Below are positions 294-27,507 of a DNA stretch of 27,507 nt, piece by piece. The translations under genes and the position numbers were made by a program. The stretch is taken from assembly GCA_040220235.1 (NCBI GenBank), contig JAVJTO010000074.1, one strand, 5' to 3'. Source of the stretch: Coleofasciculus sp. B1-GNL1-01. Lineage in GTDB: Bacteria; Cyanobacteriota; Cyanobacteriia; Cyanobacteriales; Coleofasciculaceae. The notes beneath the pieces are model-generated. The model saw only the letters and a list, made by a program, of their open reading frames with translations, had not been told where the DNA came from and made no database searches. Position 1 is the first letter of the stretch. Every line of letters begins with the position of its first letter.

Positions 294-1451
294 ATGAAAG
301 TCAAGCGCCTGAAAATCAACTCGTTCCGTGGCATCGGCGATCTGACGCTGGAGTTCCATGAGACTGAACCGACAGTCTTGGTGGGGATCAACGGAACGGG
401 AAAATCCAGTATTCTCGACTGTATCGCACTCCTGCTTTCCCATTTTGTGGCGGAACTTCAAGATCCGATTGGAACGGGACATTTTATTAACGAACAGGAT
501 ATTACGGAAGAACGGAAAATTCCGCGACATTTTTTTCGTCAGGGAGATATCGCCAATGGTGCCCATCAAACCAAAAATGAGATCACGATTTCCCTGAGAG
601 AACGGCAGATCAGTTGGTTTCTCTCGTTATCTAATACTAAGGGACGACCCAGAGGCGGGAACATTCGAGAATTAGAAGGAATTTGTTTGCGAATTAAGAA
701 TCAGTTGCAAAACAATCTGAATGTGAATTTACCCGTCGTGGTTTACTATCCCGTCAACCGCCAGTTTTGCGACAAGGTTACCCAAGAAGCAACGAAATAC
801 TATTGGTCAAACCAACTAGCGATTTATGACCACGCATTAACGGGTGTGTCGATTAACTTTAGCAGCTTCTTTGAGTGGTTTAAGGATCTGGAGGATCTAG
901 AAAACGAATGGCGTCGAGATAATCCCGAACACCGCGATCGCCTCCTAGAAGCTATCCGACAAGCGATATCCTCTCTGTTACCCGGTTTTGCGAACTTGCG
1001 GGTGCGACGCGCCCCTTTACGGATGACAGTGACGAAACAAGGTCGAGAATTAGTCGTTAATCAACTCTCAGAAGGAGAAAGAGGCTTGCTAGCCCTCGCC
1101 GCCGATTTAGCCAAACGATTAGCGATCGCGAATCCGGGGTTAGGGAATCCCCTAGAAGGGAATGGTGTGGTTCTGATTGATGAGATTGAACTCCACCTGC
1201 ATCCGAAATGGCAACATGAAATTGTGCCAGCACTGACTCGCACCTTCCCCAATTGTCAGTTTATTGTGGCGACTCATTCACCCCAGGTGATTGCCAATGT
1301 TAATCCGGAACAGGTTTACCTTCTCCAAGCTATCCCGGATAGTGATATGGGAGACACGCCGATGATTATCGCCAAACATCCAGAACCGTCAATGAGTCAA
1401 GATAGCAATTCCTTGATCAAAGAACTGATGGAGGTTTCGGTTACGTTGTAG
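294..1451 (+). CDS. ABC/AAA_21-type ATPase, PtuA (Septu/retron effector)-like, possibly C-terminally shortened
   Basis: Walker A GINGTGKS, signature LSEGE, Walker B VLIDEIELHLHP, H-loop ATHSP, and YYPVNR and FFEWF motifs typical of this family. Confidence 0.85.
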   Translation: MKVKRLKINSFRGIGDLTLEFHETEPTVLVGINGTGKSSILDCIALLLSHFVAELQDPIGTGHFINEQDITEERKIPRHFFRQGDIANGAHQTKNEITISLRERQISWFLSLSNTKGRPRGGNIRELEGICLRIKNQLQNNLNVNLPVVVYYPVNRQFCDKVTQEATKYYWSNQLAIYDHALTGVSINFSSFFEWFKDLEDLENEWRRDNPEHRDRLLEAIRQAISSLLPGFANLRVRRAPLRMTVTKQGRELVVNQLSEGERGLLALAADLAKRLAIANPGLGNPLEGNGVVLIDEIELHLHPKWQHEIVPALTRTFPNCQFIVATHSPQVIANVNPEQVYLLQAIPDSDMGDTPMIIAKHPEPSMSQDSNSLIKELMEVSVTL

Positions 1452-1570: not shown

Positions 1571-1720
1571 TTATCAGGTGAGCGTGAACATTATGTCAAA
1601 CTTGACATGTTCCCAATGCGATTTCCGTTAGTGACCATCACCTGGGTATCTGTAATCAGTTGTTGATTGGTTTCAACATATTCCTTAATGCCAAGGCAAA
1701 TCAACGCTCGGATTACACCC

Positions 1721-1800
1721 GCGATCGCGATCGCACAACCTGTTCCCTCAAACTTAATATCTTCAATCCTATCGCCTGTCGGATTCAGTTGTATCGTCAG
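1721..1800 (-). pseudogene. Internal fragment of a SufU/IscU-type Fe-S scaffold gene
   Basis: Translates LTIQLNPTGDRIEDIKFEGTGCAIAIA, containing the FEGxGCAI motif. Similarity is lost on both sides. Confidence 0.7.
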
Positions 1801-1818
1801 TGAGATGCAAAGGATTAA

Positions 1819-1881
1819 GGGCGGGTTTTGTAGAAAAGTTATCGGCATCGATTCAAACTAAATCCCTAAACCCGCCCCTAC
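1819..1881. repeat. REPIN-like element of the GTAGGGGCGGGTTT family
   Basis: Arms GGGCGGGTTT and AAACCCGCCCCTAC. Same family as 2211-2272, 5981-5998 and 17352-17444. Confidence 0.8.
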
Positions 1882-2210
1882 ATGAAGGTTAATGCTGAGG
1901 ATTCAAACGCTGCACAAACGCCTGATGTTCTGCTACAGCTTCCACTAATTTTATTGCGGTTGTTAATCATTTTGATGTCATCTGAAGTTCCCCCAGTCCA
2001 GATGTACTACACCCAGCGCCAAGCCTTATCCCGTAGTAGTTTTAGCGATCACTATCTCAAAAGTTGTACATAAGTAGCCCACGGTTACTCTTACTTCCTT
2101 TCCCAGAGTAATTTCCGGATGTATCCCTCTCGTGCAACCGTTGCTAAGATAAGAGAGATTGAACTGAACCCAAACAGAACCAGTCTGTACAATCACAACT
2201 GAAACCTTCT

Positions 2211-2345: not shown

Positions 2346-2406
2346 AAAAAAAAATCCCTAGCCCAAATCAGTGAGCCAGGGAACGTCAATCAGGGTGCAT
2401 CTACCA
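2346..2406 (-). ncRNA. nsiR1: NsiR1-like small RNA (~60 nt)
   Basis: Minus strand reads UGGUAGAUGCACCCUGAUUGACGU, then an 11-bp hairpin (UCCCUGGCUCA/UGGGCUAGGGA) and U9. The 5' part matches the NsiR1 core as I recall it. It lies upstream of and opposite to hetF, behind a DIF1 promoter. Confidence 0.75.
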
Positions 2407-2412
2407 TTTCAC

Positions 2413-2441
2413 TCTTCTGGAATAGGCGGGGTTTATCCGGA
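2413..2441 (-). promoter_or_regulatory. DIF1-type (HetR-dependent class) promoter
   Basis: TCCGGA (2436-2441), exactly 18 nt, then GAAGA (2417-2413), matching TCCGGA-N18-GWANA. TCCGGA sits about 35 nt upstream of the sRNA start. Confidence 0.75.
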
Positions 2442-2708
2442 ACAATCCTGGATCAGTTCCTCAATTGAGTTCAGTAGCATCCGTCGCCGAAAAATTCCAG
2501 CGTTCTCAACCAGGGTTAATGTCTCGCCCCTCATCCATACGATCAAAAGGTCTCATTGAATACATCACTCGCGTCTGAGTCCCTAAACTCTATAAGGAAA
2601 CTTTCATAGAATTAAATCAATCTATATCTAAAGACACTATGAATGCGATAAATCTTGAAAACCCAGTAAAAACCCTTGACATTCAGCAAACTTGACCAGG
2701 CAATAGCA

Positions 2709-5237
2709 GTGGCACAGGAATTCCATATCTCTGTGACCCCTTTGGGGGATGACCAGCATCTAGTGCGGATTGAACGAGTCGCACCCGGGGTGCCTTTGGC
2801 AGAAGAACAAGTGCGTTGGCCCATGGATGAGTGGTTAATGCAAGCGAGACAATTGATGAATGATCCCCTCCTGGGCTTGTTACAAGGGGGGGCTGGCGGT
2901 ATAGATGAGCTGTTTTTCTTGCCTAATTCCGATCAGCAAGTGCGTCAATCCTGCCAAAACTTAGTGGCGCTGGGTCAGGAACTCTATAATGCCTTATTCC
3001 AAGGGAGCTTACGTGATAGCTGGATGATGGCACAAGCGATCGCGCAAAATCAACGTACTGTATTACGACTGCGCCTGGGACTCAAGGGGAATCGCTTACC
3101 TCGCTTACCCTGGGAAGTTCTCCATGCAGGCGATCGCCCTTTGGCAACCGGGACGGATGTCGCCTTCTCCCGATATCAACTCAGCACCGGGTTGATGCGA
3201 CCGATTCATTCTCTCCCCCCTCAACCCAATCCTGTCCTGAAAATTCTGATGGTCATTGCTGGACCGAGTGACCAAGAGAGTTTAGAACTGGCACAGGAAG
3301 CCGCACATCTACAAGAAGAACTCAAAAACCGTTCTCGCCAAGAACCCCCGGCGATTCAACTCACCATTCTCGAACAACCGGGACGAGAACAACTGACCCA
3401 AGCCTTAGAACAAGGTCAATATCAAGTCTTCCATTATGCAGGTCATAGTAGTCTGGGAGATTCTGGCGGTGATGTTTATTTAGTGAGTAATAAAACTGGA
3501 TTAACGGAAACCTTAAACGGCAATGATTTAGCTGGATTGCTAGCCAATAATGGCGTGCAATTAGCCGTATTTAACTCCTGTCGTGGTGCCTATACAGCCA
3601 CCTCAGACCCTTTAGACAATGGCAAAGAGCGCAATTTAGCCGAAGCCTTGGTCAAACGAGGAATTCCTGGGGTTTTGGCAATGGCAGAGCGAATTCCCGA
3701 TGAAGTAGCACTCACCCTCACTCGCCTCCTTTATCGGAATCTCAATCAAGGCTATCCCATTGATCTGAGTCTGAGTCGAGCGCGACAGGGGCTAATTTCT
3801 GCCTATGGCTCTAACCAATTATATTGGGCGTTGCCTGTACTTTACCTGCATCCCGAATTTGATGGATTCCTCACCAACGTGGACGATGACTATCACCATC
3901 GGGAAGAACGATTACAGTTACCGGAACCACCAGATATGCCATTAGTCTCTGATGAAAGTGACGCTGAACTATTCACACGAGAGATGTTAAACACAACGAG
4001 GTTAGAGGATGAGGATGAATTCCTGGAGGATAAACCTCCCCATGCGAAGTATGAGTATCAACCGAGGCAAAATTGGCTCGATGAGACGCCCTCAGAGGAG
4101 ACTCCCTCGGAGGAGACTCTCTCAGAAGATGAGCCGGATGATCCGTCTAGCTTTATTAAGAATTTACTCGAACAACTGGATAGTGAGCCGGAGATCGAGG
4201 AACCTAAATTACCTCCCCTAGATCCGAACCATCCCCCACAACCAGCGCCTGAACAAAAGAATCAGGACGTACCCAAACCGCCGCCTCAGCAACCCACAGT
4301 TTCCTCAGCAGCGCCAGCACCAACGTCTGTGCCAAAAACAGCAACGCCGTCATCTGAACAGACGGTAATGCCGAAACCCGCTCCAGTGGAATCGCCTGAA
4401 AAGGGATGGCGTTCTTGGCTGGTTGCGCCTAAACTGTGGATTGGATTGGGGGTTGGTGCTGTTGCGATCGCACTGTTGAGTTTTGCCCTAGTTTGGAACC
4501 GTCAGCCGCCACCGGATAGGCTCAGATCACAGTCTGAGTCTCCTGTGCCGAGTTTACCCCAACCCTCAGACTTGGATGGAATCAACTTAGACAAAGCCGA
4601 AACCAGTGACGTCACCGCTTTCGCGATCGAACAATTTGGTCAAGGGAATATCGACGCCGGAACTGAAGCTGTCGAAGCGTTGCTGAATCGAGGTGCGTTG
4701 TCTCAAGCCGATGCAGCTTTAAAAGCTGTTTCTCCCTCCCAATTGGATAATCCAACCATCAGTTTCTTGAGAGGGCGTCTGGCTTGGCAATCGCTTCAAA
4801 CTGGAGATACAAACTATAATATCAGCGATGTGCGACGGTATTGGGAAACGGCGGTTAAAGCCCAACCTGACTTGGCTAACTATCATAATGCCCTTGGCTT
4901 TGCCTACTACGCAGAAGGAGATTTCGAGCGAGCCAACAATGCCTGGTTAGATGCTCTTACGTTAATTGAACAAGATCAAATCGATGCAGATGTGGCAGGA
5001 AATGGGGCGAAGAAAGAAGCGTTAACAGCCTATGCAGGATTGGCGTTAGGATTCTGGAAATCCGCTCAATCACAGCCAGCCGAAAAGCGCACCAATCTTT
5101 TAAATGAATCGTTGAAACTGCGGCAAAAAGTTCTCCAAGATGACCCTGTGAATTTTCAACCCGACGCCCTGAGTCAGAATTGGCTTTGGTCTGAGCAGGC
5201 GATCCAAGATTGGCGATCGCTTTTAGGAGAAAGTTAG
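2709..5237 (+). CDS. hetF: HetF: CHAT-family cysteine protease with a TM segment and C-terminal TPR-like region
   Basis: GTG start giving (M)AQEFHISVTP...RVAPGVPLAEE, the HetF N-terminus. Catalytic motifs FHYAGHS and FNSC, an acidic/Pro-rich linker, TM LWIGLGVGAVAIALLSFALVW, and TPR-like NALGFAYYAEG. Confidence 0.9.
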   Translation: MAQEFHISVTPLGDDQHLVRIERVAPGVPLAEEQVRWPMDEWLMQARQLMNDPLLGLLQGGAGGIDELFFLPNSDQQVRQSCQNLVALGQELYNALFQGSLRDSWMMAQAIAQNQRTVLRLRLGLKGNRLPRLPWEVLHAGDRPLATGTDVAFSRYQLSTGLMRPIHSLPPQPNPVLKILMVIAGPSDQESLELAQEAAHLQEELKNRSRQEPPAIQLTILEQPGREQLTQALEQGQYQVFHYAGHSSLGDSGGDVYLVSNKTGLTETLNGNDLAGLLANNGVQLAVFNSCRGAYTATSDPLDNGKERNLAEALVKRGIPGVLAMAERIPDEVALTLTRLLYRNLNQGYPIDLSLSRARQGLISAYGSNQLYWALPVLYLHPEFDGFLTNVDDDYHHREERLQLPEPPDMPLVSDESDAELFTREMLNTTRLEDEDEFLEDKPPHAKYEYQPRQNWLDETPSEETPSEETLSEDEPDDPSSFIKNLLEQLDSEPEIEEPKLPPLDPNHPPQPAPEQKNQDVPKPPPQQPTVSSAAPAPTSVPKTATPSSEQTVMPKPAPVESPEKGWRSWLVAPKLWIGLGVGAVAIALLSFALVWNRQPPPDRLRSQSESPVPSLPQPSDLDGINLDKAETSDVTAFAIEQFGQGNIDAGTEAVEALLNRGALSQADAALKAVSPSQLDNPTISFLRGRLAWQSLQTGDTNYNISDVRRYWETAVKAQPDLANYHNALGFAYYAEGDFERANNAWLDALTLIEQDQIDADVAGNGAKKEALTAYAGLALGFWKSAQSQPAEKRTNLLNESLKLRQKVLQDDPVNFQPDALSQNWLWSEQAIQDWRSLLGES

Positions 5238-20830: not shown

Positions 20831-22360
20831 ATGGTTGCTCCTATCCCAGACGGTACTGAAATCGAGCGTCACAGGGCTGCAATAGTCCGCACTAACTTAT
20901 CTAAGCCTGTGCGACTAGCCCTAGAAAGTGCAATTCTGACTAAAGATACTTCATTTTTTGACTACGGCTGTGGTCGTGGTAGTGACATCAACCGTCTGCG
21001 TCGGCAAGGCTATACCACGGCGGGTTGGGACCCCTACTACCATGGCGGCAATTCCCTCGTACCCTCTGATATCGTTAACCTAGGCTACGTAATCAACGTC
21101 ATTGAAAAGCCAGGAGAACGTCGCCAAGCCTTACTAAAAGCCTGGGAACTCACCCAAAAGGTGCTGATCGTCTCTGCCCAAGTTTTAATTGATGACCGTA
21201 GTTCTGGGCAAATTGCTTATGGTGATGGTATTGTCACCCGCCGGAATACGTTTCAGAAATACTACGAACAAGAAGAACTCAAAGCCTACATTGACCAAGT
21301 ATTAGGGGTTGATGCTATTCCCGTTGACTTGGGCATCTATTTTATATTCCGAGATTCCACTCAAGCCGAAAGCTTCCGGGCATCCCGCTTCCGTTCTCGT
21401 ACCATTACCCCCAGAATCCGGGTTAGCGTGAAGCGGTTCGAGGACTATCAAGATATGCTTGCTCCTCTGATGGCATTTGTCACCGAACGGGGACGCCTTC
21501 CCAGTCCCCTGGAACTCACCAATACCGAAGAAATCCTCGAAGAATTCGGCACCCTACGCCGTGCATTTAAGGTTATTTTACAAGTGACTGAGCAAAACGA
21601 ATGGGATGCGATCGCAGATAAACGTCGCCATGATTTCCTCGTCTATCTCGCCTTGGCTAAATTCAATGGTCGCCCCAAGTTTGGTCAATTAGATCCTTTA
21701 GTCCAAAATGATATTAGAGCCTTCTTTGGCAACTATCAACAAGCCTGTGCTGCGGCTGATTTAATCCTCTTGAGTGTGGGCAATCCCGGCTTAATTGCCA
21801 ATTGCTGCAAGCGATCTCCAGTGGGAAAACTTCTTCCCACCGCCCTCTACGTCCACGTTTCGGCACTCGAAGCCCTCGAAGCGCCACTCCGACTCTACGA
21901 AGGATGCGCCAGCCGGACTGTTGGTCGCCTAGAGGAGGCAACCTTAGTCAAGTTTCATATTAATCAACCTAAAATATCCTACCTGTTCTATCCCAATTTC
22001 GATACTGAACCCCATCCAGAACTACACACAAGCATGAACATTGACTTGCAGGATTTACAGGTTACCTATCGCCATTACGATGCCTCCAGAAATCCCCCTG
22101 TCTTACACCGTAAAGAAACCTTCGTCACTCCAGATTATCCCCTGTACGAAAAATTTGCCAAACTTACTCGTCAGGAAGAAGACTGGGGACTACTGGATAA
22201 TACCCAAACTATCGGTACGCGCCAAGGCTGGCAACAATGCCTAATCGACCATTGCGCCCAACTCCAAGGGCATCGTGTTATCTGGCGCAAAGATGCTGAT
22301 CCTTACCGCCTTAAACTACGCCAAGCGGCACACCGTCAACGGACGAAACGCCAGGTTTAA
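20831..22360 (+). CDS. DNA phosphorothioation-associated putative methyltransferase family protein
   Basis: ERHRAAI.R..LSKP, SAM-binding FDYGCGRG.D, GWDPYY, VNLGYVINVIE, TFQKYYEQEEL and NPPVLHRKE motifs. Confidence 0.85.
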   Translation: MVAPIPDGTEIERHRAAIVRTNLSKPVRLALESAILTKDTSFFDYGCGRGSDINRLRRQGYTTAGWDPYYHGGNSLVPSDIVNLGYVINVIEKPGERRQALLKAWELTQKVLIVSAQVLIDDRSSGQIAYGDGIVTRRNTFQKYYEQEELKAYIDQVLGVDAIPVDLGIYFIFRDSTQAESFRASRFRSRTITPRIRVSVKRFEDYQDMLAPLMAFVTERGRLPSPLELTNTEEILEEFGTLRRAFKVILQVTEQNEWDAIADKRRHDFLVYLALAKFNGRPKFGQLDPLVQNDIRAFFGNYQQACAAADLILLSVGNPGLIANCCKRSPVGKLLPTALYVHVSALEALEAPLRLYEGCASRTVGRLEEATLVKFHINQPKISYLFYPNFDTEPHPELHTSMNIDLQDLQVTYRHYDASRNPPVLHRKETFVTPDYPLYEKFAKLTRQEEDWGLLDNTQTIGTRQGWQQCLIDHCAQLQGHRVIWRKDADPYRLKLRQAAHRQRTKRQV

Positions 22361-26826: not shown

Positions 26827-27369
26827 ATGATTCGTGTTCCAGTTTTATCGCCAGATGGTGAGCCACTAATGCCAGCTAAAGCCAGCCGTGTTCGGCGATG
26901 GTTAAAGTCAGGTAAAGCCAAAGTCATACACAACGATTTGAGTATTTTTCAAGTCCAGTTACTAGAGGAGCCATCGGGCAGGGAAACCCAAGACATCGTA
27001 GCCGGAATTGATCCAGGTAAACTGTTCACCGGGATTGCTGTCCAGTCAAAGAGTGTCACCTTGTTTCTGGCACACCTGAACCTACCCTTTAAAACCGTGA
27101 CCAAGCGGATGACCCAACGGGCGATGATGCGACGGGGACGGCGAGGGCGACGGATTAACCGGAAGGTTCCTTATGACCAACGCAACCACCGCGAGTGCAG
27201 ATTCGATAACCGCAAGGGTCACAAGATACCCCCTAGCATCCGGGCTAATAAGCAGTTAGCACTACGGGTGATCCAGGAGTTATCAAAGATTTACCTGTTC
27301 ACCGATGTAGTGGTGGAGGTGATTAAAGCCAGAGGTGACAAGGGTTTTAGTCCGGCAATGGTCGGTCAG
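26827..27369 (+). CDS. isrB: IsrB RNA-guided nickase, 5' exon (181 codons), interrupted
   Basis: PLMP motif, RuvC-I GIDPG, Arg-rich bridge helix RRGRRGRR, RFDNR, PPSIRA and RuvC-II VVVE. No HNH seen before the interruption. Confidence 0.88.
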
Positions 27370-27507
27370 GTGCGATTCGTTGGCTAGAAATCAGCCAGAG
27401 TTCTTCTGAGAGCCTAGGTTTGAAGGATTAGCCGCAAGGGAAAATGACGGGATAACACCCAACAGAACCTTGACAACTTAACAGCCATGTTGGTGAGGGT
27501 CAGTATC
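27370..27507 (+). mobile_element. 5' end (domain I) of a group II intron, truncated by the window edge
   Basis: Begins GTGCGATTCGTT (GUGYG consensus) exactly where IsrB similarity stops. Followed by hairpin TGGCT/AGCCA and a CC-GCAA-GG GNRA loop. Confidence 0.75.

Follow-up and report, generated by a model that had tools for sequence, protein, structure and literature searches.

The window analyzed here, i.e., the whole 27,507-nt stretch of Coleofasciculus DNA, contains a gene for a small RNA of ca. 60 nt at 2346 to 2406 on the minus strand, opposite to hetF (2709 to 5237, plus strand). A preliminary description had called it an NsiR1-like sRNA, and this was confirmed with the Rfam model of NsiR1 (RF02399), which matches 2347 to 2406 (minus strand) along its full length (model positions 1 to 60 of 60) scoring 73.9 bits where the gathering threshold is 39 (E value of 3.9e-13). 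It was the sole gathering-level Rfam match within the window. The start, placed at 2406 from the promoter spacing and the Rfam model, is followed by a largely single-stranded 5' seed (2388 to 2406), the predicted pairing region common to all copies, and by an intrinsic terminator (2346 to 2382) with an 11-bp stem (2382 to 2355), a 6-nt loop and nine T at 2354 to 2346 (U9 in the RNA). The length of about 60 nt, the terminator stem, the U9 and the strand opposite hetF thus stand as first described. The predicted fold has an energy of −19.6 kcal/mol (z of −2.7). An 81-aa open reading frame overlying the RNA gene (2144 to 2389) was rejected as a gene (no family match, or repeat read-through).

The promoter on the minus strand reads TCCGGA-N17-AGAA-N8-T. 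The −35 element is the DIF1 motif TCCGGA (2436 to 2441), invariant in 18/18 aligned hetF-linked copies, and the −10 element AGAA (2415 to 2418) lies 17 nt after it and 8 nt before the predicted start. The published DIF1/sigma-HetZ consensus is TCCGGA-N16-17-TGNA-N7-9-T (PMC13342950), from which the window promoter departs at the first base of the −10 alone; AGAA is also found in the nsiR1 promoters of a named Nostocaceae genome (locus L075). The complete DIF1 promoter proposed initially, TCCGGA at 2441 to 2436 with GAAGA 18 nt on at 2417 to 2413, therefore holds and is conserved in the homologs. Promoter and start together form a pattern that has a single occurrence in the window, and no shuffle out of 100 reproduced it. 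Across the alignment of 18 homologs linked to hetF, no change is seen in the −35 block, in the AA pair of the −10 or in 17 consecutive seed columns, whereas the spacer varies. The terminator stem has both-sided changes in 5 of its 11 pairs and 98% of 198 cells paired, a percentage that comes from related sequences and so is not a probability. A second TCCGGA is located at 2114 to 2119, 230 nt past the RNA end; no NsiR1 seed follows it, and it is altered in locus L014.

The hetF gene encodes a CHAT-family protease (NF045509, E value of 6e-283; PF12770). Its reading frame is open from 2676, and the GTG start was inferred by alignment within a conserved start region. The NF045509 score of 941 bits is under the cut-off of 1200, which only Nostocaceae-type genomes reached. 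The NsiR1 gene lies 303 to 362 nt before the inferred start, on the opposite strand. A sigma-70 scan detected no promoter across 1900 to 2750. A weak candidate extended −10 (2142 to 2150, plus strand) would give hetF a long leader overlapping NsiR1, and such a motif within 260 nt was found in 9/23 hetF-linked loci versus 6.5 expected, i.e., not above chance. Another candidate promoter, from which the hetF message would not overlap NsiR1, is a two-block element, GGAAAC ... TCAATCTA (2596 to 2624, plus strand). It sits between NsiR1 and hetF, about 113 nt ahead of the latter, and was found in 21/24 Coleofasciculaceae-type loci (positions −109 to −125 relative to the hetF start) and in 0/24 other loci; it is possibly a family-specific promoter for another sigma factor, and it presumably resembles ECF promoters. 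Elsewhere in the window there are a PtuA-like ATPase (294 to 1451, plus strand; NF041760, below cut-off) with no partner nuclease open reading frame of at least 80 aa seen right behind, a NifU/SufU-like fragment (1591 to 1848, minus strand), a DNA phosphorothioation-associated methyltransferase (20831 to 22360, plus strand; TIGR04096) and a short IscB/IsrB-like open reading frame with an RRXRR domain (26827 to 27387, plus strand).

The host had been suspected to lack heterocysts, which its placement and gene content support. HetF shares 97% identity with its counterpart in Coleofasciculus sp. E2-BRE-01 and falls among the Coleofasciculaceae, apart from the Nostocaceae group, in a quick HetF tree. 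In the assembly (8.66 Mb, 100% complete) we found no match over cut-off to PfaA/HglE-type or PfaD/HglA-type proteins or to HepA, envelope markers of which PfaD is present in 10/10 Nostocaceae-type genomes. The genome carries hetR, nifH, a patX-like open reading frame with RGSGR upstream of hetR, hetZ with two relatives, and two hetP-family genes. By this genomic proxy, which is not microscopy, the host is most likely a non-heterocystous diazotroph.

Although the window gene had been described as single copy, this is true of the hetF locus and not of the genome. RF02399 gave at least eight matches in the host genome, seven over cut-off, among the 150 of 1909 candidates that were scored. Seed-like 12-mers number 36, and behind 12 of them there is a terminator; these seed-plus-terminator genes fall into two promoter classes. 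Seven have DIF1-type promoters: the window copy, four DIF1-NsiR1 units of 104 bp, repeated in tandem between lgt and cobM (contig C85:39353-39753), and one copy each on contigs C157 and C98 (the latter with one mismatch). A close relative (locus L009) has six tandem units versus the four of the host. Open reading frames running through the array were repeat read-throughs or lacked a family match and were rejected as genes. The other five, which we call sisters (C70:145725, plus strand; C103:537 and 406, minus strand; C130:9014, plus strand; C153:12820, minus strand), have a sigma-70-like −10 and a HetR-type box, GGGGT-N3-ACCCC, centered near −33 and overlapping the −35 position. Units of this class from other genomes mostly match RF02399 only below the gathering score (18/20, 27.8 to 36 bits). 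A third HetR-type box, without a seed, follows at C103:302, and a one-mismatch seed match at C100:28772 (minus strand), with no terminator and neither promoter type, is possibly a decayed copy. The box occurs 28 times in the host genome, versus 11 to 15 in three letter-order controls and 0 to 8 for other spacings, and is mostly intergenic; several of the 28 are nearly identical to the hetP HetR site. They may be considered a candidate HetR regulon of a non-heterocystous host.

Both promoter classes are widespread. We searched 401 genomes drawn from the phylum for the exact pattern TCCGGA-N29-32-seed and found it in 99: the host, 98/185 other Cyanobacteriia and 0/215 of the remaining genomes; the reversed control gave none in the 401. 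The 98 carriers span 16 families, with 46 in one family (f5) taken as Nostocaceae and 52 outside it. Among non-heterocystous genomes, Lyngbya PCC 8106 has five occurrences, Lusitaniella four and Spirulina one; shortening the pattern by one base gave one in Planktothrix, five in Limnothrix, two in Prochlorothrix and one in Jaaginema. In a subset of 80 of the 185, picked to span families and not random, the exact DIF1-seed pattern was present in 46 genomes, all within the 49 with a HetZ-family match, and two more genomes have a one-mismatch copy at hetF. In this subset the HetR-box pattern was found in 38/50 genomes with hetR and in 1/30 without it, three hetR-positive, hetZ-negative genomes have the HetR-box class alone, and one class or the other is present in 50/50 hetR genomes. 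Within the host family the HetR-box class is found in 52/52 genomes (51/51 without the unpublished G405). Each promoter class thus seems to track its predicted regulator, with the reservation that the genomes are related, so that these counts overstate independence.

A survey of hetF upstream regions outside the heterocyst formers, which had been suggested as a check, retrieved the single antisense copy in distant lineages. It is present in 24/25 of the Coleofasciculaceae-type loci whose flank exceeds 300 nt (two further loci of this type were left out for too short a flank), and NsiR1 copies are at hetF in 3/38 other loci, some with short flanks. In 40 further genomes, arrays are located at hetF in 7/8 of the Nostocaceae type, and hetF-linked antisense copies appear in 7/32 non-Nostocaceae (five singles at 155 to 410 nt, one at 1770 nt and one array); in the other 25/32, no NsiR1 copy lies in the roughly 2.5 kb preceding hetF. 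In the quick HetF tree, which has 43 rows and an outgroup, the hetF-linked state changes nine times, at least five of them forced by strong branches. This tree has a long outgroup branch, its root is unreliable and it does not fix the order of events; for this reason, that the linked state is ancestral is something we infer. The link is patchy yet scattered across orders and therefore likely ancestral, and repeated loss from a linked ancestor is likely a simpler history than repeated arrival at the same place and on the same strand. Because distant lineages share the arrangement of one antisense copy ahead of hetF, the hetF-linked copy is likely old, with an origin before heterocysts. The ancestral one-copy DIF1-NsiR1-hetF circuit proposed at the outset thus keeps its likely pre-heterocyst origin and loses its "one-copy" qualifier, given the 12 seed genes in the genome.

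When the 19-nt seed was scored against 6192 host start regions, the gene at the patU position ranked 21, hetZ 57, hetZ' 98 and the third hetZ relative 908, with hetF, hetR and the hetP genes at 1146 or lower; the two hetP-family starts, at 4471 and 5779, have no good seed site. It should be noted that no family model matched the patU-position protein, which is named by its place after hetZ alone. Small proteins without family matches at C16:24060-24518, C47:35278-35871 and C44:49170-49763 also have starts that score high. The one on C16 (rank 2, the top non-self target) was dropped, being patchy (17/66 genomes), with a mean of −13.3 kcal/mol over 28 loci and a site that is not conserved. A duplex scan of 30 hetZ loci of 1.8 kb each (one truncated locus was left out) gave the patU start and the hetZ start as the two best seed windows. 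Predicted pairing at the patU start averages −18.7 kcal/mol, versus −9.9 (standard deviation of 1.7) for shuffled seeds, none of 300 being as good; at the hetZ start it is −16.2 kcal/mol across the 30 loci (again 0/300). For hetZ' it is −16.5 kcal/mol in 20 genomes (0/150 shuffles as good), with the matching motif upstream in 19/20. The controls were poorer, with −12.6 kcal/mol for hetR (71/150 shuffles as good) and −9.7 kcal/mol for hetF in 50 loci. A further seed-like site in the hetZ leader was found in just 8/30 loci. In 23/23 cases the Ala within the patU site is encoded by GCA, whereas a nearby Arg uses six codons. The conservation of this site could have other causes, because it doubles as the spacer of a perfect sigma-HetZ promoter and encodes the HetZ C terminus: the TCC GGA and GAA codons at the 3' end of hetZ, invariant in 30/30 loci (C154:4475-4510 and L086 to L115), form a consensus sigma-HetZ promoter with its predicted start just inside the patU-position open reading frame. 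Moreover, the CCCU run of the seed resembles an anti-Shine-Dalgarno and may favor any start region.

Our preferred reading, to which we give a probability of roughly 0.55, is that NsiR1 is transcribed by sigma-HetZ in a host that likely lacks heterocysts, and that its seed pairs in trans with the starts of patU, hetZ and hetZ', tuning the balance between sigma-HetZ and its likely inhibitor, PatU. By analogy with Anabaena, where sigma-HetZ reads DIF1 (PMC13342950), HetR would turn on hetZ and sigma-HetZ would then fire the NsiR1 promoter. In that organism, the nsiR1 array has a HetZ ChIP peak that is lower in a hetZ mutant (PMC13342950, supplement file 3); nsiR1 expression is listed as "up" in the hetZ mutant in the same dataset (PMC13342950), which does not fit simple activation. 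On the long hetZ-patU message, the seed would cover the patU ribosome-binding region, the strongest predicted site, with weaker ones at hetZ and hetZ'. NsiR1 would thereby lower the translation of PatU and, to a lesser degree, that of HetZ and HetZ'. A short patU message, made from the sigma-HetZ promoter within the hetZ end, would begin downstream of the site and so escape. The net effect might be a shaped timing of the pulse of HetZ activity, not an off-switch for a single gene. The five HetR-box sisters, with the same seed, could bring the same targets under direct HetR control, repression being the more likely sign, and cis-antisense damping of hetF, as for NsiR1.1 in Nostoc, may be secondary here. 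In a filament without heterocysts, division arrest through PatU would be the likeliest output; PatU has been linked to division (PMC9457339). In short, NsiR1 probably exerts feedback on the HetR-HetZ-PatU module in trans. A broader version, which we hold tentatively and at somewhat less than even odds, would see NsiR1 not as a heterocyst RNA but as a core component of the HetR-HetZ-PatU-HetF module found in filamentous cyanobacteria, with one seed under two promoter classes (sigma-HetZ and HetR box) feeding back on patU, hetZ and hetZ'. The hetF-linked copy would be the ancestral gene expanded in Nostocaceae, and its promoter would mark a cell state, patterned or transient and not described so far, of filaments that lack heterocysts.

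Three other explanations have to be weighed against these. The window copy might act chiefly in cis, pairing as an antisense RNA with the hetF leader as Nostoc NsiR1.1 does; with less HetF, PatU would accumulate and arrest division. Its orientation and position are those of NsiR1.1 (PMC9045159), PatU3 is cleaved by HetF (PMC9457339), the single antisense copy is kept in nearly all Coleofasciculaceae-type loci (24/25), and antisense copies recur in 7/32 non-Nostocaceae genomes of other families. We nevertheless regard this as unlikely. The upstream hetF −10 that it would need a leader from is not above chance (9/23 versus 6.5), the conserved element downstream of the RNA gene (21/24) could start a hetF message skipping NsiR1, and 25/32 non-Nostocaceae genomes have no copy in this region (about 2.5 kb upstream of hetF). 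A fixed sequence is unneeded for cis pairing, yet the seed is invariant, and in Anabaena a hetF-gfp fusion hardly changed when the −10 box of nsiR1.1 was removed (bioRxiv 10.1101/2020.09.09.290692).

Alternatively, NsiR1 could be made and act in trans on other conserved messages, the hetZ and patU matches being a by-product of the anti-Shine-Dalgarno likeness and of promoter and coding constraints. Twenty host start regions do outscore patU, the patU site overlaps promoter and coding sequence, and alr3234 is a validated trans target in Nostoc (PMC9045159). This appears decidedly improbable, given that conserved sites are found at three separate genes of one circuit and not at the hetR and hetF starts, and that the best other match, the small protein on C16 (rank 2), has a site that its homologs do not conserve (mean of −13.3 over 28 loci). 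Finally, the lineage might make no use of the circuit, the locus being a silent relic or a terminator that arose by chance. Contigs from eight sequencing runs reveal neither strand, start nor level: those of X1 to X4 and X7 are long and flat, span the RNA gene as well as hetF, and may contain DNA, those of X9 to X11 are found only from 2490 onward at low depth, and none ends at the NsiR1 RNA boundaries. Invariant promoter blocks and seed beside a spacer free to vary, compensatory changes in the stem, and the retention of the sister HetR-box class in 52/52 genomes of the family make a relic very improbable indeed. Trans-acting feedback on the HetZ circuit thus remains the reading that we prefer.

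NsiR1, its array and two Nostoc targets are known from heterocyst formers (PMC9045159, PMC4030482, and PMC6596454). The view of the preliminary description that the RNA is restricted in print to such organisms does not hold, since BLAST homologs were listed in 38/89 genomes, 27 heterocystous and 11 not, with marks for Trichodesmium, Arthrospira, Oscillatoria and Microcoleus (PMC4734099, Table S3), and an NsiR1-like RNA162 was reported in Limnospira indica (PMC8400943). The presence of NsiR1 outside heterocyst formers is therefore not new; the family is known and this type of host has been listed before, although not studied. As far as these two sources were covered, the records come without promoter, hetF linkage or target, and Coleofasciculus is not in the head row of Table S3. 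Two supplement files of a Trichodesmium transcriptome (PMC4143802) had no mention under the terms searched. Among the papers that our search listed, none dealt with promoters of NsiR1 or its linkage to hetF outside Nostocales, with sisters of the HetR-box class, or with targeting of hetZ/patU; the primary papers of 2010 (Ionescu et al.) and 2020 (NsiR1.1-hetF) were beyond its coverage and may discuss non-heterocystous homologs. The role of HetR and HetZ in filaments without heterocysts has been called a mystery or unknown (PMC11298460 and PMC12669612), and a DIF1 promoter was predicted for patX-hetR in Leptolyngbya BL0902 (PMC11298460). A promoter-RNA unit of 100 nt, conserved in HetZ-bearing lineages, would be a ready reporter for where and when sigma-HetZ fires in such filaments.

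With NsiR1 of Nostoc/Anabaena sp. PCC 7120, where copy NsiR1.1 is antisense to the hetF leader (PMC9045159), the window gene shares the 60-nt size, the 5' seed, the terminator, the TCCGGA promoter spacing, and the position and orientation at hetF. It differs in that PCC 7120 has 12 copies at hetF and the window locus one, the tandem array of the host being elsewhere (lgt-cobM), unlike the hetF-adjacent array of heterocyst formers. Pairing of the NsiR1.4 type with a hetP-like message, as in Nostoc, is not predicted in the host, where the two hetP-family starts rank so low, and the host of NsiR1.1 forms heterocysts whereas the window host likely does not. HetR binding at the hetP promoter follows the rule GGG-N5-CCC (PMC4192349), which the predicted GGGGT-N3-ACCCC box of the host sisters fits; unlike the hetP site, this box precedes an NsiR1-seed RNA and overlaps the −35, outside the window locus. 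With the HetR-PatX/HetZ-PatU core circuit (PMC13342950), the host shares hetR, the patX-like open reading frame, hetZ with the patU-position gene downstream, hetZ', the hetP family and hetF. The sigma-HetZ regulon and HetF-PatU3 proteolysis were described in a heterocyst former (PMC13342950 and PMC9457339), in accounts that, in the parts covered, do not mention small-RNA control of hetZ or patU; the predicted patU and hetZ sites would add an RNA layer to this recently defined core circuit.
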